From contig CAMMVF010000014.1 in the NCBI GenBank assembly GCA_946500295.1, positions 959 through 64,958 on the forward strand: a DNA stretch of 64,000 nt. The letters are read 5' to 3'. Shown piece by piece: positions 3,087 to 22,322 of this stretch. The notes beneath the pieces were generated by a model. The model worked only from the letters and a program-made list of their open reading frames with translations. It was not told the origin of the DNA and ran no database searches. Position numbers and translations under genes: made by a program. Within the stretch, counting starts at the first letter, position 1. Each line of letters begins with the position of its first letter. This stretch comes from an uncultured Clostridia bacterium (lineage in GTDB: Bacteria > Bacillota > Clostridia > Oscillospirales > Acutalibacteraceae).

Positions 3087-3125
3087 TTGACTATTCCCTT
3101 AATTTATGCTATAATTTAAGGGAAA
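3087..3125 (+). promoter_or_regulatory. Sigma-A promoter of fic overlapped by dyad ATTCCCTTAA-N13-TTAAGGGAA
   Basis: TTGACT 3087-3092, 17 bp spacer, TATAAT 3110-3115; dyad arms 3093-3102 and 3116-3125. Confidence 0.75.
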
Positions 3126-3142
3126 TGGAGGTGCTTCCGGGA

Positions 3143-4189
3143 ATGAGAATCTTTAATTATTCACAAATCAAGAATCATACTTGGGATTCGGAAGTTTTGG
3201 GGCTGATTGCTGCCATATACAAAGAAGCCGGAAAACAAGAGTTATATTTAAAGCAACGCTCCGACGAATTGGAAAAACTCGTAGAAATTGCAAAAGTGCA
3301 AAGTACAGAGGCATCCAACGCTATTGAGGGTATTGTTACCACTAATACACGTATTAAGCAACTTGTGGCTGAAAAAACCACTCCTCGCAATCGTGATGAG
3401 CAGGAAATTGCAGGCTATAGAGATGCACTCGGTATTATCCACGAGAGTTTTGATGCTATTCCCATTACAAGGAACTACATCTTGCAGCTTCACAAAATCA
3501 TGTATAGCCATATGAATAACCCTATGGCGGGGCAAACAAAGAATGTGCAAAACTATATCAGTGCCACATACCCTGATGGCCGTGTGGAAACGCTTTTCAC
3601 ACCGCTTGCTCCTTTTGAAACGCCGGAGGCTTTGGATAAAATCTGCGAAGAGTATAATCGTGTAATTGGAAACTTTGAAGTCGAACCACTGATTGCGATT
3701 CCCACATTCATTCACGATTTTCTTTGTATTCATCCGTTCAATGACGGAAACGGCAGAATGAGCAGATTGCTCACAACTTTGCTTTTGTACCGCAACGGAT
3801 TTTATGTTGGCAAATACATCTCCCTTGAAGCAAAAATCGCCAAAAACAAAGATTTGTATTATGATGCCCTTAACAAATCTCAAGATGGCTGGCACGAAGG
3901 TACAGAGGACGCTGTTCCGTTCATCAAATATATTCTAAGCACTATTCTTGCAGCTTACAAGGATTTCGAGGATAGGTTTGCTATCGTAGAAGAAAAGTTA
4001 CCTGCCCTTGAAATGGTAAGAAAAGCTACGATGAATAAAATCGGTAAGTTTACAAAACAGGATATCCGTGAACTCTGTCCGACCTTGAGCGTTAGTTCAA
4101 TTGAAGGTTCTTTACGAAAGCTGGTAGAATTGGAAGAAGTAAAGCGTGAGGGCAAAGGTAAAGGCACTTTCTATTACCGATTAAAATAA
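3143..4189 (+). CDS. fic: Fic family protein with C-terminal winged-helix (moron between terL and portal)
   Basis: Fic motif HPFNDGNGRMSR; C-terminal FTKQDIRELCPTLSVSSIEGSLRKLV...GKGKGTFY; GGAGG RBS favours ATG 3143 over 3125. Confidence 0.9.
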   Translation: MRIFNYSQIKNHTWDSEVLGLIAAIYKEAGKQELYLKQRSDELEKLVEIAKVQSTEASNAIEGIVTTNTRIKQLVAEKTTPRNRDEQEIAGYRDALGIIHESFDAIPITRNYILQLHKIMYSHMNNPMAGQTKNVQNYISATYPDGRVETLFTPLAPFETPEALDKICEEYNRVIGNFEVEPLIAIPTFIHDFLCIHPFNDGNGRMSRLLTTLLLYRNGFYVGKYISLEAKIAKNKDLYYDALNKSQDGWHEGTEDAVPFIKYILSTILAAYKDFEDRFAIVEEKLPALEMVRKATMNKIGKFTKQDIRELCPTLSVSSIEGSLRKLVELEEVKREGKGKGTFYYRLK

Positions 4190-4330: not shown

Positions 4331-4727
4331 TTGAGTATCTTTTCAGGACTATTCCGTTCCAGGGATAAGCCTAAAAACGCAACCTCCGGCAGTTCCTACC
4401 GCTTTTATTTAGGCGGTTCAACTTCCGGCAAACCTGTAACGGAACGCTCGGCAATGCAAATGACAGCCGTACATTCCTGTGTGCGTATTCTTGCAGAGGC
4501 AATTGCGTGTCTGCCGTTACACCTTTACCGCTACACAGAAAGTGGCGACAAGGTCAAGGCAACCGACCACCCTCTGTATCACCTGCTCCACGATGAGCCG
4601 AACCCGGAAATGACCTCGTTTAGTTTTCGTGAAACGATGATGACACACCTTTTGCTTTGGGGCAATGCATACGCACAAATCATTCGCAACGGCAAGGGCG
4701 AGGTTATCGCTTTGTATCCCTTGATGC
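4331..4727 (+). pseudogene. Phage portal protein, N-terminal fragment
   Basis: SIFSGLFRSRDKP...VTERSAMQMTAVHSCVRILAEAIACLPLHLY...EPNPEMTSF..LLLWGNAYAQIIRNGKGEVIALYPLM, then an abrupt switch to capsid DNA. Confidence 0.9.
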
Positions 4728-5292
4728 TCACAAACTCACCGCACTTATCAAGGTTTCCGAGGAGTTGCTCAATGACTCTGCATTCGACCTTGAGAGTTAT
4801 TTCCGCAGCGAATTTGCCCGTCGTATTTCCAATGCCGAGGAAATCGCATTTCTCACTGGTGATGGTAAGGGTAAGCCGACCGGTCTGTTCAGCGACACCG
4901 AGGGCGCTGATGTTGGCATTACCGCTGCATCCGCTACCGCCATCACCGCTGATGAGATTATGAACCTCTATTACAGCCTTCGCGCACCTTACCGCAAGAA
5001 CGCTGTATGGTTGATGAACGATGCGACCGTCAACGCTATCCGCCTTTTGAAGGATAAGAACGGTCAGTATCTCTGGCAGCCCGCTTTGAAAGATGGTACT
5101 TACGATACCTTGCTCGGTCGCCCGGTATACACCTCCAATGCTGTACCTACCATCGGTGCCGGTGCCAAGGTTATGGCTTTCGGTGACCTTTCCTACTATT
5201 GGATCGGTGACCGTGAGGGCATCACTTTCCGTCGCCTTAACGAACTTTATGCAGCCAAGGGACAAATTGGCTTCCTTGCTACCAAGCGTGTG
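4720..5292 (+). pseudogene. HK97-type major capsid protein, internal fragment
   Basis: AHKLTALIKVSEELLNDSAFDLESY, AEEIAFLTGDGKGKPTG, LKDKNGQYLWQP, LLGRPV, FGDLSYYWIGDR, QIGFLATKRV; both ends missing. Confidence 0.9.
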
Positions 5293-5613
5293 GAGATAGG
5301 AGTGTCTATCAACACTGTCAAAAGTTTCTGCCGTAGAAATGGAATGTGTACCAGTCGAGGAAACCGATGTATATACTGCGGTGGCATAATAACGCAGTTG
5401 CCGGGAACTAAAAAGCGTGTATTCTGTTCCGATAAGTGTAAGCAAACCTATTGGAATAAAATGCGAACAACTCGTGTGAGCAAAAACAAACTTCCACATC
5501 AATGTCCTGTCTGTGGTGAGATTTTTTATGATTACAGTAGTTCAAAAAGGACATACTGTTCACAGGAATGCTACCATAAGAGGAATTCGATTTGCACAGA
5601 GTTATCAGATTAA
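5293..5613 (+). pseudogene. C-terminal part of sigma-70-region-4-like HTH / Zn-finger phage protein, fused in frame to the capsid fragment
   Basis: IGVSINTVKSFCRRNG then CIYCG...KRVFCSDKC and CPVCG...KRTYCSQEC; this type of gene normally precedes the recombinase cluster of such prophages. Confidence 0.7.
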
Positions 5614-5690
5614 AAACATAGGTCGCAAGGTTGCACTACTTTTGGAAAGTGTGAACTTTGCGACCTTATTTATGCCTAATAAAGTTAAAG

Positions 5691-5846
5691 ATTACACGAA
5701 AGGTCATATAATTACACGAAATGTCGGCACTGACCTCTGCGGTTTCATTTCTGCATATAATGCAATCAAAAGCTCTATTTAAGACATAAAATATAGCCGT
5801 TGCAAAGAAGCAAAACCGCTCTCTACAACAGCATAATTACACGAAA
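5691..5846 (+). repeat. Three direct copies of ATTACACGAAA (possible integrase arm-type sites)
   Basis: Copies at 5691-5701, 5711-5721 and 5836-5846. Confidence 0.6.
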
Positions 5847-5898
5847 GGTATTAAAAACCGCATAGAATAAGGCATAATTTGAAACCGAGAATAAAAAG

Positions 5899-5935
5899 TA
5901 AGAACCTCACGATTGTATCAACCGTAAGGTTCTTA
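5899..5935 (-). terminator. Hairpin just 3' of the tRNA half-copy
   Basis: taagaacctcacg / cgtaaggttctta inverted repeat with one mismatch; T-tract follows on the minus strand. Confidence 0.6.
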
Positions 5936-5937
5936 TT

Positions 5938-6020
5938 TGGTGCGGGCGACAGGACTTGAACCTGCACATCGGTTGACACTAGAACCTAATGGTGACGACA
6001 CCTTGGTGAAAAAATAATTT
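5938..6020. mobile_element. attL: tRNA-Leu 3' half (52 bp) joined to the element P' arm
   Basis: 5938-5989 is identical to 27767-27818 and ends in the anticodon loop; followed by tggtgacgacaccttggtgaaa, an imperfect inverted copy of the arm at 27902-27920. Confidence 0.85.
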
Positions 6021-6021
6021 A

Positions 6022-7374
6022 TTAATTCTTCGGGAACGGTATGGCATCATATTTCCCCCTGAAATATTCAGATATTATTTTTTTATCAAAACGGTCATCA
6101 AATTCATCAAGTGATCTAATAGTTGAAAACCCATTCTCATCTTTGTTTATAAAATTTATTTCATCTTTTCTAAGTAACTTCAAATCCATAAGCTGAGATT
6201 CATGCGTTGTTACAATCAATTGAATTTTTCTTTCTTTTGCTAATTCCAAAAATTCCTCGACAAATTTAATTGTTAGAAGAGGATGAAACATGCGATTTAT
6301 TTCATCAATAATATATACTTTGTTATCATCATTGTTAAGCAAGATTTCTATTATATCTAGTAATCTAACCGTACCATCTGATTCATCTTCTAGTGAAAAC
6401 TTTGCATTAGAGTTTTTATGTTTAAATTCCAGAGTTTTGTATTTAAACATACCTTCTTCGTTTAGACTAACAATAAACATGCTGTTTTCAGGTGATCTAA
6501 TTAACACAGCTGGTTTATGAGATTTTTCTCCTTCTTTGTTATTGTGCTTTTGTTCTGAAAGCATGTTATGAATATCTTTAATTATCTCTTTTGGTAAAGT
6601 TGAATTTACCTTTTCTGGCGCAATATTAGAAACAGTAATTTTTTCAATTCCAGTTGAAAAATGATTAAGCTTTTCAGCAATTACATCAAGGTTGTTGCTG
6701 TCAATCATCCAAGAATAATTTGTTATAGGTCTTTCGGGAAATGTTACTGTTAATTTAAAACGTATCCAATTATAAACATCTTTAAATACTGTGATTTTAC
6801 TGGGCGTTGCGTATAAATTATCTTTATTTTGATTCATTAATTTTAAAAACAAAATTGAATCATCACTTTTTATGTCATCGGCATAAATATTTATGCGATC
6901 CTTTAATGTATTTGTTTTTATATATGAACCTAAAGTGAATTTTTTATCGAGTATATTTCTAGAAAACACATAGTTTTTTTGTTCACTTTTAGTTTCTTCG
7001 TATAACCACTCTTTTTGTAATGAACTGTTGTTCAATATAACTTCAAATCCATAAACAAAAGTTTTTTTATTTGTTTCAATCTTAATTTCAAAAAAACTTG
7101 CTTTATCTTTGTTTTCTTCAACTAATTTGCAATAGTGCGGGTAGGAACCACTTTCAAAACCACTAAATACAATATCTTTAAAAAAAGAAAATGCATAAAC
7201 TAGATTGGATTTACCGGAAGCATTGGCTCCATAAATTGACATAAATTTTAAAAGTTTATATTTGCCATCTTTATATAACCTTTCTGAAAAATTACGTACT
7301 TTCCCCGCTTCCATGCTAAAGGTTTGAATTTCATTAAAAGATAGAAAATTACCAACTCTAAATTGGAGCAACAT
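6022..7374 (-). CDS. RloA/AAA_21-like ABC-type ATPase
   Basis: MLLQFRVGNFLSF start with GAGGTG RBS; Walker A GANASGKSN, signature ESDGT, Walker B IIDEINRMFHP; promoter TTGATA-17-TATAAT at 7421-7393. Confidence 0.8.
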   Translation of the reverse strand: MLLQFRVGNFLSFNEIQTFSMEAGKVRNFSERLYKDGKYKLLKFMSIYGANASGKSNLVYAFSFFKDIVFSGFESGSYPHYCKLVEENKDKASFFEIKIETNKKTFVYGFEVILNNSSLQKEWLYEETKSEQKNYVFSRNILDKKFTLGSYIKTNTLKDRINIYADDIKSDDSILFLKLMNQNKDNLYATPSKITVFKDVYNWIRFKLTVTFPERPITNYSWMIDSNNLDVIAEKLNHFSTGIEKITVSNIAPEKVNSTLPKEIIKDIHNMLSEQKHNNKEGEKSHKPAVLIRSPENSMFIVSLNEEGMFKYKTLEFKHKNSNAKFSLEDESDGTVRLLDIIEILLNNDDNKVYIIDEINRMFHPLLTIKFVEEFLELAKERKIQLIVTTHESQLMDLKLLRKDEINFINKDENGFSTIRSLDEFDDRFDKKIISEYFRGKYDAIPFPKN

Positions 7375-7514
7375 AAACTCACCTCTCGAATTATTATAAC
7401 TAAACCAACAGAAAATATCAAGAATTATTAAAGATTTGTCACTTTTAAAAGGCATATTTCGCAATATTAAGCGAACTAATATCAAATTAAAGAGAAATTT
7501 TCACTTTACCCCCC

Positions 7515-7574
7515 TTGACAATTTATGATATGTGGCTTATACTTGTTTTAGCACTTAACGATATCGAGTGCCAA
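7515..7574 (+). promoter_or_regulatory. Sigma-A promoter followed by CIRCE-like (HrcA) operator
   Basis: TTGACA 7515-7520, 17 bp, TATACT 7538-7543; TTAGCACTT-N9-GAGTGCCAA at 7548-7574 versus consensus TTAGCACTC-N9-GAGTGCTAA (2 mismatches). Confidence 0.75.
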
Positions 7575-7619
7575 TATGCATCCGGAGGCATATTGTCTAT
7601 AGAAAGGAGATAGTCAATC

Positions 7620-7739
7620 ATGGCCAAAACCAAGAGTAGCAAGACTGGTAAACAGGATAAAAAAATTGTCCCAGTCAAGCCTTATAAAAGGTCTGATGGA
7701 ACAACAGTTAAGGGGCACAGACGTTCAACCCCTAACTAA
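7620..7739 (+). CDS. 39-aa basic small protein (not in ORF track)
   Basis: GAAAGGAG RBS; MAKTKSSKTGKQDKKIVPVKPYKRSDGTTVKGHRRSTPN. Confidence 0.75.
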   Translation: MAKTKSSKTGKQDKKIVPVKPYKRSDGTTVKGHRRSTPN

Positions 7740-7837
7740 AATTTTCATAAGAAAGAATCAAAGTTAATGATGAACCTATGTACTCCTATTGTAGAACAAC
7801 TTTATGATACCACATTATCTTTGTAACTTCAACCGAC

Positions 7838-7874
7838 AAGTTTGTAACAATTTATAGGTTATTGTTACAAACTT
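7838..7874. promoter_or_regulatory. Perfect 14-bp inverted repeat before the yfbU RBS
   Basis: aagtttgtaacaat-N9-attgttacaaactt. Confidence 0.6.
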
Positions 7875-7887
7875 AAAAAGGAGTCAT

Positions 7888-8412
7888 ATGATAACAGATA
7901 CAGAAAAATTAATACTTTTTAATCAGTACGAGATTCTAAAATTTCTAAATCCAGATGAAACTGATTTCTACGAGCAGAATCAAAAAGTGCTTGAATACGG
8001 AAGTGAAAGTGATATTGAAGAATTGTCATCTTTTTTGATTGGAACATCAGAAGAAGTTAAAAAAGAAACTTTTGATATTTTACAAATGTTTCGAGATTTA
8101 GAAGATGCGTATGAAAAATTCTTTAATTCAACTTCTGAATATAAGTATAGTGCGAAATTTAGGGGATTTGATGGAAATGAAGAACCAGAATATTATTGTT
8201 ATTGCAAACATTTGATAATTGATGAAGATAGATATTCAGAATTTAAAGGCAGAGAACTAAATAGTCATTTTCCAGTGATAAACAGATATCGAAAAATGTT
8301 GAATTGTTACAATATCACAAATGAAAAACGAATCGGCAATTTCTATGAAAATCCAATGACTTTAAAAGAATTTGAATACATAATTCAAGGAGAAAGTACT
8401 GAAGAGCAGTAA
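7888..8412 (+). CDS. YfbU (UPF0304) family protein
   Basis: EKLILFNQYEIL, TFDILQMFRDL, FRGFDGNEE, LNSHFPVINRYRKML match the YfbU pattern; AAGGAG RBS. Confidence 0.7.
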   Translation: MITDTEKLILFNQYEILKFLNPDETDFYEQNQKVLEYGSESDIEELSSFLIGTSEEVKKETFDILQMFRDLEDAYEKFFNSTSEYKYSAKFRGFDGNEEPEYYCYCKHLIIDEDRYSEFKGRELNSHFPVINRYRKMLNCYNITNEKRIGNFYENPMTLKEFEYIIQGESTEEQ

Positions 8413-8574
8413 TGAATGTCATTTCTTGAAACTGCTATTAGTACCTTAATAATAGCAGTTTCAGAAATGTAGTTATGTCCTGCAAATATATGCTATGGAT
8501 TGTACTGGTTAAAAAAGACGATTATTAGAGTATGAAGCAACTAATTAATAAAATGTTACGGGAGGTATTATAAA

Positions 8575-9498
8575 ATGATAATACGCAAAAATAGAATAAG
8601 AAGTGAAAGTTACCTTAATGAGTTTAAGAAGGGTTCAAATCTTACAATTAAAGTTAATAATGTATTGAACAGTCAAACTAAAATAGAAAAATTTGGATTT
8701 AAGCTTGATGATGTGGATGGCACAACTATCTTGCCTTCTGTATTCAATTCATATTCAAGAAAAAATGCAGAACAGTTCTATACAATAGATAAAACATTGC
8801 CTAAAGAAAAATATACACAAACAATCTACTGGACAAGAACCGAGTGGGCTGGTAGAGGAGAAACTCGTGAAGTTACTGAGTTTACTGATATTGTGCGTGA
8901 ACGTTATCACAGAGATTATCATTTACCTTATTCAGTAGAGTTTACTTTGTCAAGAACAGAATCTGAAAACTCTATTGTATCGCAACAAATAAAGTATGTT
9001 GATGATAATATAAAAAAGACAATCAATACTATAAACTTAGTACTAAGTTTATTTGGCGAATGCGAAATTATCTCTGATGAAGAACCTAGCTATAGTACAC
9101 CAGCAAAAGTAGTGCATGTTAATTGGGATATTTTACCCAAAGGTAAATATCCTTGGACAAAGGTGAAAAAATCAATAGAGAGCATTTCGAAAAAATATAA
9201 CAATACGCAAAAAGAAATGATGTTGAGAAATTGTGAAGAAATAAATAAATTATCTCCTGACTTTGTAGCGTATGGTCGTGCAGGATTTAGAGGATATGCA
9301 GTTTTTGGATTTACTGATAAGAATTTGTATATTCTTGAAAGTATGTTTCCAAATAATGCTACTTATATCTTTGAAAAAGACTGGGAAGAATTATCTATGC
9401 TTTCAAAAGGTGAAATTCTGAATCAAAGTTTGCATAAAGCAAGAATAATTCATACTGCAAAATGGAATGAAAAATTCGAACAAATAATGGGGAAATAA
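8575..9498 (+). CDS. Hypothetical protein (307 aa), candidate defence effector
   Basis: GGGAGG RBS; C-terminal GRAGFRGYAVFGF...ILES...NATYIF...W..LS.LSK.EIL...RIIH..W; no family recognised. Confidence 0.8.
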   Translation: MIIRKNRIRSESYLNEFKKGSNLTIKVNNVLNSQTKIEKFGFKLDDVDGTTILPSVFNSYSRKNAEQFYTIDKTLPKEKYTQTIYWTRTEWAGRGETREVTEFTDIVRERYHRDYHLPYSVEFTLSRTESENSIVSQQIKYVDDNIKKTINTINLVLSLFGECEIISDEEPSYSTPAKVVHVNWDILPKGKYPWTKVKKSIESISKKYNNTQKEMMLRNCEEINKLSPDFVAYGRAGFRGYAVFGFTDKNLYILESMFPNNATYIFEKDWEELSMLSKGEILNQSLHKARIIHTAKWNEKFEQIMGK

Positions 9499-9525
9499 TA
9501 TTTATGTGTAATTGCTAATTATTTA

Positions 9526-9577
9526 GTAGCTCATAAAATTTTGTGTAAAAATCGGTAGCCCATAAATTTTTGTGTAA
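9526..9577 (+). repeat. Tandem 23-24 bp duplication resembling an IS256-family terminal sequence
   Basis: gtagctcataaaattttgtgtaaa and gtagcccataaattttgtgtaaa; no transposase nearby. Confidence 0.35.
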
Positions 9578-9931
9578 ATAATAATCCTTCAAGAAACAAC
9601 AAAACATCGGATTGAGGAGCAAATCAGGAGGATTGATTTGCTCTTTGTCATACTTTTTTCTATCTGCACGATGTTTTTTTTTGCGTGCCTTGCGTAAAAA
9701 TCATCACGCAGTCAAGAAATTCTATTTTGAGCATAATTAATGGAATTCCCTGTTCTCACAGACTATTTATCTCTAGTTTTAAATTATAGCCTAGTTTTGA
9801 TATTTATGTTAGCATACTTTAGAAATTAAGAAGAAATATCTATTTTAATCTCTATATTGATTTAGCATTAACAAGAGAATTCAAAAGTTCTTGTATGAAA
9901 TGGATTAATGCAGTAATAATTATTTAATTGT

Positions 9932-11545
9932 TTACCACCAGCTGTATCTTGATTTTTTAAGCTTTTTTGATTCTTCATCCTTTGAATGCTCTCTTTCTCC
10001 AAGTAAGTCATCATTAAGCTTTACAGTGGGATCATACCAATCAGCCTTATTTTTAGCCCATTCTATCCATTTCTTGTCTTCATCAGTTAAGTTTGGTTTT
10101 GAAGAAACGGCTTCAATATACTTACGTATTTTACAGGCAACTGCAAAATCTTCTGCTTCATTAACCAACGCGATTGTTCTATCAATTTCATTATCCCGTC
10201 TTTGTCTTAATTCTTCTTCTTTGTGCCTTTTTTCTTCACGACGTCTCTCTTCTTCCTCACGCTTTTTTCGCTCAACTTTTATTATTTCTGATTTTTCATA
10301 TAAATCAATCAGAATATTCCCGAGTTGATTCTCAATTAATGAGGTATTGGTGTCTTTATAATATTTTCCTTCAAATACACAGAGCTTGATCTTTCCGTTA
10401 AAAATGTAGTCCCAACTTCTGATTTGTGGTTTAGATGCCCATTTGTATTTCTGCTTTTCCTTTTCGTATTTCTCAAGTTCTCTCAATTCTTCTTTTGTTT
10501 TTACATGAACGATTTTACTCTCGCTTTCAATGACCTTAAAGGTTACGGTTTCACCCCTGATTTCAAGCGACAGATCATCGTTAGTTTTTCCGCCTAATGA
10601 CTCTACACATTTGAATAGTGTATCAATCAAACAATGCACTCTGGGTAGACTTTCATCGGAAATATCATAATAAAGTGGAGGTCCCCCTTTTGGAATAGAA
10701 TAATATCTATCTCTCTTGCGTGAGGCAGAAATATCACGCTTATGATCCTTTTTCCATGAATTTATTTTAGCCTTATTAGCTTTTAATACAGGATGCAGAA
10801 TCGTAGATTCATCAGATAAATTGAATATAATTTTCTTAGCAGCTGAAATTACTTTTTGCTTTTCATCGTCAGATAAAAAGTCAAGTATTGCTTTATTAGG
10901 TGAATCGTCAATAACAGTGTCAGTACTTCTCAAACCTGTTTTTGTTGTAACATCATCAGAAGGCGGCAATGGTATTTTGGGGACATGGTGACCTGTTTCA
11001 ATTTTGCGCCAGTATCCTGCAGGAGGTTTTGGAATATTTAATGATTTACAGATTTTGTGTATCATTACATCAGAAACCCCATATTTTTTTGCTACCTTCG
11101 TTATGGGTTCATTCCATATTTCCTCATAAAGGGTATTTCTGTCATATGTATTGATTCCATTTTCTGTGTTAGTTTTTATACCGTATTCTTCTGCAAGTAT
11201 GGATTTTTGCTTTTCAGTAGAAACAGTTGTTTGTTCCACTTCTAAAGGTTTCAGTGTTTTTTGTTGAGCTTTCTTTTGAACAGTTACAGGCTTACTTCTA
11301 TCAGTTACCGGCAAAAGTATTTCTGTGATTTCAGATTCAGGTAACGGTGTTTTCTCAACCTTTTTCCCAACAGAAAGACTTGCCCAATACGAGTTTGAGG
11401 GAAGTGGAATGTTATATTTTTCACATGACTCCTTAAACTTTTGATATGGTACATCATATTTTTTCGCTGTTCGTGAGGTAGAGTTTAGCCATACTTCATC
11501 ATATATTTCCTGCCTTGAAAAAGCAGTCATTTTATATTTTGCCAA
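9932..11545 (-). CDS. Hypothetical protein with duplicated HTH-like module and C-terminal coiled coil
   Basis: GGGAGG RBS before TTG 11545; repeats SRQEIYDEVW...AKKYDV...CEKYNIPLPSNSYW and DRNTLYEEIW...AKKYGV...CKSLNIPKPPAGYW. Confidence 0.8.
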   Translation of the reverse strand: MAKYKMTAFSRQEIYDEVWLNSTSRTAKKYDVPYQKFKESCEKYNIPLPSNSYWASLSVGKKVEKTPLPESEITEILLPVTDRSKPVTVQKKAQQKTLKPLEVEQTTVSTEKQKSILAEEYGIKTNTENGINTYDRNTLYEEIWNEPITKVAKKYGVSDVMIHKICKSLNIPKPPAGYWRKIETGHHVPKIPLPPSDDVTTKTGLRSTDTVIDDSPNKAILDFLSDDEKQKVISAAKKIIFNLSDESTILHPVLKANKAKINSWKKDHKRDISASRKRDRYYSIPKGGPPLYYDISDESLPRVHCLIDTLFKCVESLGGKTNDDLSLEIRGETVTFKVIESESKIVHVKTKEELRELEKYEKEKQKYKWASKPQIRSWDYIFNGKIKLCVFEGKYYKDTNTSLIENQLGNILIDLYEKSEIIKVERKKREEEERRREEKRHKEEELRQRRDNEIDRTIALVNEAEDFAVACKIRKYIEAVSSKPNLTDEDKKWIEWAKNKADWYDPTVKLNDDLLGEREHSKDEESKKLKKSRYSWW

Positions 11546-11658
11546 GATAATAACCTCCCTTCGTAAATTAATTAACGATTCTTCTATCAAGATTTTTGTT
11601 GCTTGAATTTGTTTTATTTCATTTTCATATATTATTTGTGATTGTTTCACCTCCCTAA

Positions 11659-11982
11659 TTATTCGTCGCCACGCAATAAAAAACTTAAATCGCTTTTCAT
11701 TTCAGTAAATTCTTTAATGATATTCTCAAGATTTTGTTCAATTCCTTGAACCTGAACTTCATTGATTTTACCGTATTTATAGGCAATTAATCTTTCGGGA
11801 ATAATATTATAGCTCCAACTATCTGTATAGCTGTCTTCATTTTTTATAGCAAAACCGATAGGCAGTTTTTCATATCTCATTCCTGTTCTGACAGCTATAA
11901 CAGATATGCCGAGATAATCTGCTGCTATCTGACAAGTAACTTTCTTCATATTCCTAATTTTATCATCAGTATACTTGTTCAA
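11659..11982 (-). CDS. Small HTH (excisionase-like) DNA-binding protein
   Basis: VTCQIAADYLGISVIAVRTGM...LPIGFA...YNIIPERL; GAGGTG RBS. Confidence 0.65.
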   Translation of the reverse strand: MNKYTDDKIRNMKKVTCQIAADYLGISVIAVRTGMRYEKLPIGFAIKNEDSYTDSWSYNIIPERLIAYKYGKINEVQVQGIEQNLENIIKEFTEMKSDLSFLLRGDE

Positions 11983-12100
11983 AACTATTCACCTCTTTTC
12001 AGATAATTTATTACAATATAATATTACCATTGATTTTTGTTTCAATCAATATAAAAAAGAAAGAAGCCCGATGAATTGAGCTTCTTGTTTTTATATAGAA

Positions 12101-18562: not shown

Positions 18563-18874
18563 ATAGAAAATCGTAAGAGAAATCAAACTTTAAGTATCAG
18601 ATTAACTGATTCCGAAAAATCAGCAATCTATAAAATGTCAAAGAAAGCTCATCTGACATTGACTGAATATATTTTGAAATCTTCATTGCAAACCGAAATT
18701 AAAGTAGTTGATTTGCAACCGTTACTTGTTGAACTGAAAAGGATTGGCAATAACCTGAATCAGATAACAAGGAAGATAAACAGCGGTGCTTTTAGTTCCT
18801 ACAACTTTAGTGAAATGATTGCTATGCAAAGAAAAATTTATGATGCAATCATAAAACTCTCGGGGGAAAAGTAA
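18563..18874 (+). CDS. mobC: MobC relaxosome protein (probable ATA start)
   Basis: GGAGG RBS then ATA-GAA-AAT-CGT-AAG-AGA (ENRKRNQTLSIRLT); ELKRIGNNLNQI motif. Confidence 0.8.
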   Translation: MENRKRNQTLSIRLTDSEKSAIYKMSKKAHLTLTEYILKSSLQTEIKVVDLQPLLVELKRIGNNLNQITRKINSGAFSSYNFSEMIAMQRKIYDAIIKLSGEK

Positions 18875-20340
18875 TGGCGACCGTGACATATATCCGTGAG
18901 TCAAAACAATCAATAAGTGCGATGAAAGGTGTAATTGATTACTGTTGTCAGGATAAGAAAGTCTATGATGAGATTTCAAATCAAAGACTTGTCAGCGGAA
19001 TTAATTGTGACGGTGAAAATGCATTCAAAGAGTTTATGGCTACTAAAAAGTCATACGGTAAAAACGACGGTATGAATTTCTATCAGTATGTTCAATCCTT
19101 CTCACCTGAAGCAAATATTACTCCGCAGAAAGCTCATGAGGTTGCATTAGAGTTTGCCGAAAAAGCGTGGACAGGATATGAAGTTTTAGTTGCCACTCAT
19201 TGTGATGTACAGCATATTCATTCACACTTTGTAATCAACTCTGTTAGTTTTGAAAATGGTAAAAAGCTTCGTCAGAATCCAAACACGCTCAAATCGTTTC
19301 GAGCATTGAGTGATGAAATTTGTAGGCATCATAATCTTTCAACTCTTGTGCCTTACAACAAGGACTGTATGAAAATTTCAACAAGAGAATACCGCACGGC
19401 AGTAAAAGGTCAGAGTTGGAAATTTAAACTGATGAACGACATAGACAAAGCTATGAACATAAGCGGAAGCAAGGAAGATTTTATAAACGCAATGTCAATT
19501 ATGGGTTACTCGGTAACATGGACTGATGACAGGAAATACATCACCTATCAATGTCCTAACAAAATGAAGTGCAGAGATATTAAACTGCACAACGACAAAT
19601 ATTTGAAAGGAAGTATGGAAAATGAATTCAGATACAGGCAAGAACAATATTTTGGAAAGTCTCAAGCAGATGAACAGCAATTCATTGACAGCGATAGAAC
19701 TGCTCTCGGGAGAAACGAAAGTGATTTCGATTCCGTCACAGGTGAGAGAGGAAGAACTCACCCTGTTGAGAACGGCAATAACATTTCAGCCGGAACTGTA
19801 CAACATGATTTCAAAAATCTCAACGGACGACCAGATGGTGGACTATTTGGAAAGAATTCTGGAAATCAACAAAGACAATATGAAAACGATCTCACAGAAT
19901 TGTCTGACGGAGCTGAAGAAAGTTTCAGAACAGACGCTGAAAGAAATCAAGTCGGTGCAAACGCAGATGACGAAATCTATCGAACAGGCTGGGAAGATTC
20001 AAGAAGAAATTTTGAACAATACCTTGCAAAAAGGTCAGGAGTTGGAATCGGCAATAGCATCACAGGTGAAGAAGTCAACACTCCTGACAACTCTAAAATG
20101 GATAGCAATAACCATACTGTCCTCGGCTGTGTCAACTCTCTTGCTGAATCACTTTCTCGGATAGTAGATGATGAATCGGAGGATGAAGAAGAACGCAAAA
20201 AAAGAATTGCAGCCGAGCAAAACGGTAGTGATATTGGTACAGCAATAGGACTTGCTGTAGGTGTGCTTGCAGGTGCAATATCAAAAGAAGAAAATATTGA
20301 ATATGAAGATGAAGAATCAGAATTTAATATGAGCCTATAA
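18874..20340 (+). CDS. Relaxase/mobilization nuclease (MOBP-type)
   Basis: N-terminal ...DY.., QYVQSFSP, ATHCDVQHIHSHFVINSV HUH motif. Confidence 0.9.
   Translation: MATVTYIRESKQSISAMKGVIDYCCQDKKVYDEISNQRLVSGINCDGENAFKEFMATKKSYGKNDGMNFYQYVQSFSPEANITPQKAHEVALEFAEKAWTGYEVLVATHCDVQHIHSHFVINSVSFENGKKLRQNPNTLKSFRALSDEICRHHNLSTLVPYNKDCMKISTREYRTAVKGQSWKFKLMNDIDKAMNISGSKEDFINAMSIMGYSVTWTDDRKYITYQCPNKMKCRDIKLHNDKYLKGSMENEFRYRQEQYFGKSQADEQQFIDSDRTALGRNESDFDSVTGERGRTHPVENGNNISAGTVQHDFKNLNGRPDGGLFGKNSGNQQRQYENDLTELSDGAEESFRTDAERNQVGANADDEIYRTGWEDSRRNFEQYLAKRSGVGIGNSITGEEVNTPDNSKMDSNNHTVLGCVNSLAESLSRIVDDESEDEEERKKRIAAEQNGSDIGTAIGLAVGVLAGAISKEENIEYEDEESEFNMSL
19622..20164 (+). CDS. Overprinted ORF in the +1 frame of the relaxase; coiled coil plus C-terminal hydrophobic anchor (MobB-like)
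   Basis: 180 codons open, AAAGGAAG RBS 8 nt upstream, ends KWIAITILSSAVSTLLLNHFLG. Confidence 0.65.
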   Translation: MNSDTGKNNILESLKQMNSNSLTAIELLSGETKVISIPSQVREEELTLLRTAITFQPELYNMISKISTDDQMVDYLERILEINKDNMKTISQNCLTELKKVSEQTLKEIKSVQTQMTKSIEQAGKIQEEILNNTLQKGQELESAIASQVKKSTLLTTLKWIAITILSSAVSTLLLNHFLG

Positions 20341-20618: not shown

Positions 20619-20714
20619 TATCTGGATATTATAGAAAAGTTGTGATATGTTGTGGTTGCACCGAGGTGGTGTGACCACAACATTCATATGATAAAAACGG
20701 AGAGGAGAATGATT

Positions 20715-22322
20715 ATGAAGGTGTGGTTGTATTACAGACTGTCAAGAGATGAAGATGCTGAGCTCAATTCTCTTAACAATCAGCGTAACATTTTAGTAGA
20801 ATACGCAAACGCTAATAATCACGAAATCGTGGGCGAGTCCTTCGATGATAATGTAAGCGGTATGCACTTCAATCGTGAGGGTATCAGCAAAATCTATGAA
20901 CAGGTCGAGAATAAGGCAATTGAAGCAATCATTGTAAAAGACTTATCCCGACTAGGCAGACACAGAACACAGACTGCTATGTTCATAGATTATCTTCGTG
21001 AACACGATGTCAGAGTGCTTTCTGTTACAGAAAACATTGACACAAGCAATGAAGATGATGATCTGATGATTGGTTTCAAGGGAATTTTCAATGATATGTA
21101 CGCCCGTGATATTTCAAAGAAAATCCGTGCAGGCTACAAGCAGAAACAGAAAAACGGCATTGTGATTACAGTACCGCTTGGATATTTTAAGGATAAGAAT
21201 ACAAATGAAATTGTAGTTGTTGAGGAAGAAGCAGAGATTGTCAGAAAGATATTTGACCTCTACCTATCAGGCTACGGTTTAAAAGCAATAGCCAAAAAGC
21301 TGAATGATGAGGGCATAAAATCACCGCAGTATTATCAGAACAAAATGTATAACAAGAAACTTCCGAGTAACAAGCCTGAAATTACGGGTAGGTACTTATG
21401 GGTGAACACAACGGTAAAACGGATTTTGCAGAATGAGTTTTACATAGGAACCGTAACCTGTCACAAGACCTATACCAGTAAAATTAATCATATTAGGAAG
21501 GCTTTGCCCGAGGATGAACAATTTAAACACGAAAATTTTGCACCTGCCATTATCTCAAAGGAGAAATGGGAACAGGTGCAATTTTTATTATCTTCAAAGC
21601 ATAACAATAATGTCCGAGCAAGCTCAAGTAATCCTTGCCACCGCTACACAGGACTCATAGAATGCGGTGACTGCGGTTGCACATTCGTATGTAAAAAGCG
21701 TAAGTGGAAAGATAAACCCGAACGCATCGAATACAACTGCAACGGCTATCATCGCTATGGCAAGGAACATTGCACGGCACACAGGATTGATGAAGAATAT
21801 TTAGATAAGATGATTTATGACGAGCTTATGTCTATCAAAGATGAAGCACTTGCAAACTACAAATCAATAGAATCGGATGTCAAGAAATGGATGAGCAACA
21901 AGGGGACAGTTACTAATAAACTGAAACAGCTCAATACAAGCCTTGAACAGCGCAAATCTGACCAAAAAGAAATCCTGCTTGAGAGAATCAGGGATAGGGA
22001 ACACGCAGATATCTACACAGAAATGCTTGAAAAATGTGAATCGGATATTCAAAAGCTTGAGAATGAAATCAAGTCCATTCAGGATTACAACTCAACTATC
22101 AAAAAGCGCAAAGCTGAAATGAAAGACAGCGTTGAAATCATTGAAGAAATTATCAAGGAAGGAGCAATCAGTGACGCAAACCTCAGATTGCTTGTAGATA
22201 AAATAATAATCTTTGAAAAAGATAAAAAACTGAGTATCAAAATCAAGTTAAATGCAAAATTTCAACGACATAAGGATTGTTATAATGATAATGGAATAGT
22301 TTCAGAAAAGATATTCATATAA
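20715..22322 (+). CDS. Large serine recombinase (integrase)
   Basis: YYRLSRDED catalytic Ser, DDNVSG, KDLSRLGR, recombinase domain, CGDCG..YNC..HC Zn ribbon, coiled coil; GAGGAG RBS. Confidence 0.92.
   Translation: MKVWLYYRLSRDEDAELNSLNNQRNILVEYANANNHEIVGESFDDNVSGMHFNREGISKIYEQVENKAIEAIIVKDLSRLGRHRTQTAMFIDYLREHDVRVLSVTENIDTSNEDDDLMIGFKGIFNDMYARDISKKIRAGYKQKQKNGIVITVPLGYFKDKNTNEIVVVEEEAEIVRKIFDLYLSGYGLKAIAKKLNDEGIKSPQYYQNKMYNKKLPSNKPEITGRYLWVNTTVKRILQNEFYIGTVTCHKTYTSKINHIRKALPEDEQFKHENFAPAIISKEKWEQVQFLLSSKHNNNVRASSSNPCHRYTGLIECGDCGCTFVCKKRKWKDKPERIEYNCNGYHRYGKEHCTAHRIDEEYLDKMIYDELMSIKDEALANYKSIESDVKKWMSNKGTVTNKLKQLNTSLEQRKSDQKEILLERIRDREHADIYTEMLEKCESDIQKLENEIKSIQDYNSTIKKRKAEMKDSVEIIEEIIKEGAISDANLRLLVDKIIIFEKDKKLSIKIKLNAKFQRHKDCYNDNGIVSEKIFI

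Follow-up and report, generated by a model that had tools for sequence, protein, structure and literature searches.

How does a gene on a mobile element come to carry what looks like a heat-shock operator of the element's host? The question is raised by positions 7515-7739 of a 64,000-nucleotide (nt) stretch of DNA, below called the window, from an uncultured Clostridia bacterium of the Acutalibacteraceae (contig CAMMVF010000014.1 of assembly GCA_946500295.1). Here a promoter, an inverted repeat resembling CIRCE (controlling inverted repeat of chaperone expression) and a leader hairpin precede an unannotated open reading frame (ORF) for a basic protein of 39 amino acids (aa). CIRCE operators and their repressor HrcA govern the class I heat-shock operons groESL and hrcA-grpE-dnaK-dnaJ in Bacillota, with GroEL modulating HrcA. 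Our comparison indicates that the repeat is probably a functional CIRCE for the host's HrcA, lying on the transcription start of the 39-aa gene's promoter and heading a portable cassette with swappable anti-phage cargo, which stress would derepress. The locus is built as follows.

7515..7543, forward strand: near-consensus sigma-A promoter, with the -35 box TTGACA at 7515-7520, a 17-nt spacer and the -10 box TATACT at 7538-7543
7548..7574, no strand assigned: CIRCE operator TTAGCACTT-aacgatatc-GAGTGCCAA, beginning 4 bp past the -10 box, with the expected transcription start lying within it
7572..7595, forward strand: stem-loop in the leader (5' untranslated region), caatatgc (7572-7579) pairing with gcatattg (7588-7595) in an 8-bp stem with loop ATCCGGAG; it shares the last 3 nt of CIRCE
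7603..7609, forward strand: Shine-Dalgarno sequence AAAGGAG, 10 nt ahead of the ATG
7620..7739, forward strand: gene for the 39-aa basic protein MAKTKSSKTGKQDKKIVPVKPYKRSDGTTVKGHRRSTPN, with its ATG at 7620 and 39 codons, recognized by homologues and codon-position bias

The promoter scores 11/12 and is the top promoter match across 5500-12000; its expected transcription start falls inside the left CIRCE arm. The dyad agrees with the CIRCE consensus TTAGCACTC-N9-GAGTGCTAA at 16 of 18 positions, and with these two mismatches it is the sole match within the 64-kb window at three mismatches or fewer, where shuffled sequences lead one to expect 0.01. For an arm mutant of this operator, the change of TTAGCACTT to TTATAACTT may serve as an example of the design.

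We then placed the site within the HrcA regulon of its host, whose genome of 2.18 Mb has a G+C content of about 45%. Just four sites in this genome lie within two mismatches of CIRCE: those ahead of groES-groEL and hrcA-grpE, which are both perfect, that of an hsp18-like gene, which has one mismatch, and the window dyad (the identities of groES, hrcA-grpE and the hsp18 gene were checked with NCBIfam). Allowing three mismatches adds one further site, which looks like a chance match; a reversed control pattern likewise yields one. Scored with a position weight matrix built from 19 host chaperone operators, the window site ranks fourth genome-wide with 19.2 bits, the next site reaching 13.5 and none other exceeding 8. 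The host encodes HrcA itself (TIGR00331, 249 bits against a cut-off of 197); the hrcA gene adjoins grpE, with a perfect CIRCE of its own. In the groES promoter of the host, TATAAT-aaaa-TTAGCACTC, the operator stands 4 bp from the -10 box, and the window arrangement, TATACT-tgtt-TTAGCACTT, has an equal offset. The two deviations of the window dyad also recur in genuine chaperone operators: TTAGCACTT is an arm of the host hsp18 site on the opposite strand, and GAGTGCCAA lies ahead of groEL in the metagenomic contigs L169 and L211. The preliminary description, made from the letters of the window alone, had listed the promoter, dyad, 8-bp hairpin, ribosome-binding site (RBS) and 39-codon ORF, all of which we found where it had put them. 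Its reading of the dyad as CIRCE is borne out by the sequence, by the groES-like offset and by the HrcA gene of the host.

The hsp18-like gene (L003:1501-1543; C2:126168) is arranged differently: its promoter is of the extended -10 type (TGcTATAAT) with CIRCE overlapping the -35 region, whereas CIRCE comes after the -10 box at groES and in the cassette.

Evidence across relatives came from more than 150 loci encoding the 39-aa peptide. The dyad is kept in every locus in which the gene for an AbiLi-like ATPase or for an HTH_3 protein of 354 aa lies divergently beside the peptide gene (L011-L024, L044-L046, L053, L055, L062 and L070, together with 18 matches from scans of viral and metagenome sequences), the ATPases of these loci being 56-100% identical. 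Even beside ATPases of only 56-65% identity it is retained. The preliminary description had suggested a search for homologues together with a check for CIRCE upstream; conservation held throughout the loci of this architecture and failed in the homologues from prophage contexts, which are without the dyad. We distinguished 14 sequence versions of the cassette, of which 13 were tabulated; the number of independent lineages is modest, the roughly 14 versions all being related. All 13 distinct sister leaders read TTGACx, 17 nt, TAnAAT, 4 nt, CIRCE. Among the tabulated dyads, 14 of the 18 arm positions are invariant, and pairwise identity is 0.90 in the arms against 0.37 in the 9-bp spacer. The sister operators agree with the host consensus at 14-17 of 18 positions (1-4 mismatches), and several lineages come closer to it than the window does, for instance TTAGCACTA-N9-GAGTGCTAA at locus L055 of the cultured carrier Ruminococcus flavefaciens SAb67. 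As an internal control, metagenomes were scanned for CIRCE with ATGGCNAARAC 20-50 nt behind it; the 77 matches comprised GroEL, GroES and HtpG, 17 copies of the peptide gene, and a few short ORFs that were not identified. In five cassette-bearing host genomes we counted 3-6 CIRCE sites each at two mismatches or fewer and none with the reversed control pattern, and HrcA was found in every host examined. Judged by this conservation, promoter, CIRCE, leader hairpin and 39-aa gene together constitute a portable cassette, found on integrative elements in Clostridia of gut and rumen (Ruminococcus, Oscillospiraceae and Acutalibacteraceae-type hosts).

The leader hairpin is conserved as well: four of seven pairs of its stem covary among seven sister leaders, and the TCCGGA core of the loop is largely kept. 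An Rfam scan of 5000-12000 returned sub-threshold microRNA noise only and no known RNA family. We considered the leader as a riboswitch or small RNA and rejected this, there being no Rfam match and the dyad arms being conserved in sequence without covariation.

We next asked whether the ORF behind the operator is a gene. Using the natural 41-codon open frame as the query, a protein search retrieved 87 homologous clusters of 60-98% identity, mostly of exactly 39 aa, from which alignment A1 was built; tblastn further found full-length, unannotated copies of 67-72% identity in Lacticaseibacillus phages. Over 77 distinct coding sequences, pairwise differences at codon positions 1, 2 and 3 number 22848, 20167 and 68126, and invariant residues, including R34, S36, T37 and P38, are encoded by four to six different codons. 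Since the excess lies at third positions and invariant residues are spelled with varied codons, selection evidently acts on the protein, and the ORF, by this coding pattern, is clearly a real gene under purifying selection. The unannotated ORF of the preliminary description can thus be taken as translated. The same text had called the peptide nucleic-acid-binding-like, a label for which its basic charge is the only support.

What follows this gene differs from element to element. In the window two genes lie behind it.

7888..8412, forward strand: YfbU-family gene of 174 aa (Pfam YfbU, 1.1e-33), the first cargo gene
8575..9498, forward strand: gene for a 307-aa protein of a widespread unannotated family (272 clusters)

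The YfbU assignment (PF03887 / PRK05445) exceeds both cut-offs, with 117 bits against 25 in Pfam and 96.2 against 90 for NCBIfam PRK05445. This pair also occupies the slot in L044, L159, L200 and L203, and YfbU alone in L045, L164 and others. Elsewhere the same slot holds cyclic-oligonucleotide-based anti-phage signalling systems (CBASS) of three kinds: an E2-type CBASS with cyclase, E2 protein and an effector with four transmembrane segments (L011, L046, L147, L158 and others), a Cap5-type CBASS with an HNH-SAVED effector and cyclase (L053, L055, L062, L171, L201), and a type I CBASS with a two-transmembrane-segment effector and cyclase (L070). The cassette heads the cargo slot in all cases, and left arms (ATPase or HTH protein) combine freely with right arms. 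The window itself contains neither the cyclase of the cGAS/DncV-like nucleotidyltransferase type nor the effector of a CBASS, both of which are in the same slot of L011, L046, L053, L055, L062, L070 and L201. A search for the E2-CBASS cyclase among 400 genomes of the same order found two distant homologues only, both without CIRCE and peptide. The preliminary description had imagined a stress- or infection-triggered switch, an idea made more credible by the sister cassettes that stand at the head of CBASS operons; by their place in the slot, YfbU and the 307-aa protein also become candidates for a role in defence.

One locus appears to have been caught in the exchange. L011 (3001-3120) is recombinant, being identical to the L044 type until codon 15-20 or so of the peptide ORF and to the L046 type thereafter. 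The crossover lies at about the invariant KKIV codons, with the ATPase/YfbU type on its left and the HTH/E2-CBASS type on its right. Its position inside the 39-aa ORF therefore points to the peptide gene as a homology anchor for the exchange of defence cargo.

Whether the operator could also govern the cargo depends on how far its transcript reaches. The following features lie downstream of the peptide gene.

7802..7813, forward strand: box TTATGATACCAC in the spacer, from the alignment of six sister spacers
7838..7874, forward strand: perfect 14-bp palindrome AAGTTTGTAACAAT-N9-ATTGTTACAAACTT, which abuts the yfbU RBS and has no U-tract
8427..8463, forward strand: second perfect 14-bp hairpin, in the gap between yfbU and the 307-aa gene, again with no U-tract
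9613..9647, forward strand: first intrinsic-terminator-like site downstream of the promoter, by terminator prediction

No canonical U-tract terminator was predicted on the forward strand between 7739 and 9613, in line with the preliminary description, which had noted no clear terminator between the peptide, yfbU and 307-aa genes; transcription may thus plausibly continue into yfbU and the 307-aa gene. The spacer of 150 nt between peptide gene and cargo is conserved among cargo types and contains a TTCAAC/G motif with an AT-rich hexamer 17 nt on. L045 and L046 have homologous palindromes of the form TTGTAA..TTACAA. Each of the two 14-bp hairpins might serve as an operator, an attenuator or a site of RNase processing.

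These observations suggest how the cassette may work. In Bacillus subtilis, HrcA represses genes with CIRCE and needs GroEL for its activity; according to the titration model, unfolded proteins titrate GroEL away and thereby cause derepression. GroEL is classically burdened by phage capsid production. In an unstressed cell, HrcA maintained by GroEL would repress the cassette promoter. Heat or a surge of unfolded protein, including the mass of phage structural protein late in infection, would titrate GroEL, upon which HrcA would be released from CIRCE and the peptide made. In the window the transcript would then probably extend beyond the peptide gene, taking in yfbU and the 307-aa gene and ending at the terminator at 9613. 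That HrcA binds, that stress induces the promoter, that transcription enters the cargo and that infection plays a part are steps that we infer, from evidence that is comparative throughout. A more far-reaching version is that mobile elements link abortive-infection cargo (three CBASS architectures, or YfbU and the 307-aa protein) to the HrcA-GroEL sensor, with the 39-aa protein acting both as crossover point and as an active co-factor, possibly binding the spacer hairpin or box to control read-through; this we put forward tentatively and consider rather unlikely as a whole.

Several observations weigh against the proposal that the dyad is a working CIRCE in charge of a defence cassette. The window operator has two mismatches, while the host chaperone operators are perfect or have one, and since the site is imperfect in comparison, repression may be weak. 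Most peptide homologues, in prophages and other contexts, are without CIRCE, their best matches having at least six mismatches; by this distribution the peptide intrinsically needs no HrcA control, and CIRCE is a trait of one cassette lineage and not of the whole peptide family. The dyad could also act as a 5' stem of the RNA. Lastly, in the cassettes with Cap5-type and type I CBASS (L053, L055, L062, L070) the peptide gene is followed by a long hairpin and then a T-run, and this hairpin with its A- and T-tracts resembles a terminator or attenuator (fold z-scores -4.4 in L053 and -3.6 in L062). Because of this structure in the sisters and of the palindrome before yfbU in the window, the cargo may own a promoter and regulator.

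The last point leads to an explanation that we regard as a serious possibility, though short of probable: CIRCE is genuine but gates the 39-aa gene only, the cargo is served by its own promoter in the spacer of 150-200 nt, under control of the palindrome or box there, and the connection between HrcA and defence is merely one of position, the peptide gene being a recombination anchor. The hairpin with A- and T-tracts speaks for it, as do the TTCAAC/G box with its AT-rich hexamer, the TTGTAA..TTACAA palindrome at the RBS and the L011 crossover within the ORF. So does the peptide gene of Lacticaseibacillus phages, which stands alone with its own promoter, a different dyad and a terminator. However, no U-tract terminator is predicted in the window before 9613, the long hairpin is degenerate there, with six of nine pairs formed, and the promoter candidates in the spacer are weak. 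Furthermore, CIRCE and defence cargo co-occur strictly, with no case in a non-defence context, which would be hard to explain if they were unrelated. It is unlikely that the CIRCE likeness is coincidental and that the dyad is the operator of some other regulator, of the element or of the host, or a 5' stem-loop for mRNA stability. In favour of this idea, the transcript probably starts inside the left arm, so that most of the dyad would be transcribed and fold; the outermost arm changes are symmetric (T..A, T..G, C..G), as fits base pairing or a dimeric protein, and a second, covarying hairpin follows directly. Yet in each of 14 independent versions 14-17 of the 18 arm positions agree with the host CIRCE consensus, several lineages coming within one mismatch of it, and an A:C mismatch in the putative RNA stem is kept unrepaired in 8 of 13 versions. 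As the divergent gene encodes an ATPase in some loci and an HTH protein in others, the element has no constant regulator of its own, and the spacing of 4 bp between -10 box and dyad copies that of groES. That the dyad is a chance or decayed CIRCE-like sequence without function we consider highly improbable: the two consensus mismatches and the AT-rich foreign DNA around it would fit, but about 0.01 such matches are expected per window, the arms and not the spacer are conserved over some 14 diverged cassettes, and the distance from the -10 box does not vary. We thus retain the reading of the dyad as an operator for the host's HrcA. On the sequence evidence, HrcA control of the peptide gene is well supported, and for HrcA control of the cargo we see about even chances.

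In at least 28 of 80 other genomic loci, the peptide gene comes after an Xre-type helix-turn-helix (HTH) protein, an M78 peptidase and a basic protein of 33-44 aa, and these loci sit at prophage ends or upstream of terminase. The full prophage module consists of the Xre-type HTH protein (about 118 aa), the M78 peptidase (about 170 aa), a terminator, the 33-44-aa basic protein (MYIFRPWITRKDGTK...FRFWV) and the 39-aa peptide, and it follows lysis genes or directly precedes terminase (L025-L032, L033, L038-L043 and at least 28 of L044-L123). L044, the twin locus of the window's element, has neither the Xre HTH protein nor the M78 peptidase. In a record described as a Helicobacter heilmannii 'prophage' (L010, BK070128.1) we noticed a homologue of 33 aa whose leader shares ...AGTGCCGATATGGCA...CATAGAAAGG with the window and has no left CIRCE arm; this record is probably chromosomal DNA and not phage, because it includes enolase and phosphate acetyltransferase genes.

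What the peptide does was approached through its structure and distant relatives. An AlphaFold2 model (predicted local distance difference test score, pLDDT, 77) shows residues 1-13 as a disordered, basic N-terminal stretch, together with a small beta-meander. A sequence search of the PDB gave nothing significant, the best match (E of about 1) being ORF34 of phage p2, a single-stranded DNA-binding protein (SSB). Foldseek with the model gave nothing significant either (E >0.8), and PHROGs returned no significant match, only one family of unknown function and a weak match to SSB. Pfam had no match, and a profile comparison with DUF2188 revealed no relationship. A profile search of 1.8 billion representative proteins showed the core VxVxGYTRxDGTxVxxHxRSxP to be a repeat of about 22 residues, present in two to nine tandem copies in large proteins (P0088, P0110, P0112, P0123, P0130), several of them with C-terminal Ser/Thr kinase domains. 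Against DUF5666 these multi-repeat relatives score 25.6-31.2 bits as whole proteins (gathering score 27) and no single stretch qualifies; the relationship among the repeats is clear, that to this Pfam family only marginal.

The surroundings of the cassette contain the following further features.

6022..7374, reverse strand: divergent AbiLi-like AAA_15/AAA_21 ATPase gene (Pfam AAA_21 1.4e-28, and AAA_15; PADLOC AbiLi 4.2e-70)
7393..7421, reverse strand: promoter-like site of the ATPase gene, TTGATA-17-TATAAT, more than 125 bp from CIRCE
9932-11650, reverse strand: gene for a protein of 572 aa that is not assigned to any family and is about 95% identical across several sister elements

The ATPase likely starts at the ATG at 7374, which gives 450 aa; its 450-aa orthologues in L011 begin MLLQFRV. 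The gene is monocistronic, with a terminator-like site at 5935-5899. No AbiLii partner was found beside it, and the peptide, YfbU, 307-aa and 572-aa proteins have no PADLOC match. We had considered that CIRCE governs the ATPase gene and rejected this in view of the distance of its promoter.

For the 307-aa protein, AlphaFold2 gave a confident model (pLDDT 90.7) with no analogue in the PDB (best Foldseek template modelling score about 0.15). A fold of the pore-forming toxin kind was tried and rejected, the matches being artefacts of a long beta-hairpin. The usual partner of the 307-aa family is an overlapping downstream gene for a 74-aa DUF2188 protein, the pair lying near Fic, RES or SIR2 genes and integrases (L219-L231). 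In three Lachnospiraceae loci (L035, L036, L087) the peptide gene overlaps the 3' end of a 307-aa homologue, the usual place of DUF2188, and this swap of position is a hint that the 307-aa protein might be a partner of the peptide. The 572-aa gene lies upstream of the cassette in L158 and L165 and downstream in L200 and L203, and it probably belongs to the element backbone.

The preliminary description had spoken of a mobile island, and this was confirmed: with a relaxase (18874-20340), a large serine recombinase (20652-22322), an AAA_25 protein and a C5 methylase, the window element is, by its gene content, an integrative mobilisable element. It lies in a block of low G+C that spans roughly 6000-29000. 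When 60 related genomes were searched at the DNA level, no copy of the element turned up; it is not vertically inherited. To the left of the island we noticed an ORF of a phage capsid family (4657-5613), the C-terminal third of which looks unrelated and is rich in Cys, suggesting a prophage remnant or a fusion; a gene for a Fic/DOC protein (3125-4189) stands beside it.

How costly abortive-infection systems such as CBASS are silenced and switched on is only partly understood, and the regulators known to do this are encoded by the elements themselves and sense DNA damage (CapH/CapP) or other signals. The present comparison suggests that defence genes are wired to a protein-folding stress sensor. 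If this is true, unfolded-protein load would be a licensing signal, acting via a host chaperone operator borrowed by a mobile element; the HrcA regulon would reach beyond chaperones, and bacterial immunity would have a second general stress input. The analysis also defines a widespread, unannotated family of 39-aa proteins. Our literature search found no paper linking CIRCE or HrcA with phage defence, CBASS or the peptide motif, and the evidence suggests an operator of known kind whose recruitment by mobile defence loci is new.

Among known systems, class I heat-shock operons are the closest in the operator itself: the cassette has the same 9-N9-9 inverted repeat on a sigma-A start, the groES-like 4-bp offset and HrcA in its hosts. 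It differs in that the gene so controlled would be a 39-aa basic non-chaperone on a mobile element with anti-phage cargo behind it, and in that the cassette operators are slightly degenerate (1-4 mismatches), unlike the perfect or one-mismatch CIRCEs of the host. In the CapH-CapP control of CBASS, an HTH repressor is cleaved by a metallopeptidase activated by single-stranded DNA, and Xre and M78 pairs of the ImmR/ImmA or CapH/CapP kind respond to DNA damage (Lau et al., bioRxiv 10.1101/2022.04.27.489752). The cassette would share with this system a defence operon placed behind a repressor for a general stress signal and not for a specific phage component. In addition, the prophage homologues of the peptide directly follow an Xre-type HTH and M78 peptidase pair of that kind, which supports the idea of stress-licensed expression. 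Unlike CapH-CapP, the sensor of the cassette would be the host's proteostasis repressor, recruited through a borrowed operator with no regulator encoded by the element, and the signal would be unfolded protein instead of DNA damage. Lactococcal AbiL consists of the AbiLi ATPase and AbiLii; the divergent ATPase of the window fits the PADLOC model of AbiLi but is monocistronic, has no AbiLii-like partner and is replaced by an HTH_3 protein in sister loci. Defence hotspots in phages, satellites and integrative elements combine conserved flanks with swappable cargo. The peptide cassette resembles them as a conserved anchor that has an ATPase or an HTH gene to its left and YfbU or one of three CBASS types to its right, yet here, unlike in defence hotspots generally, the anchor would itself be a regulated promoter and a small gene with a heat-shock operator of the host.

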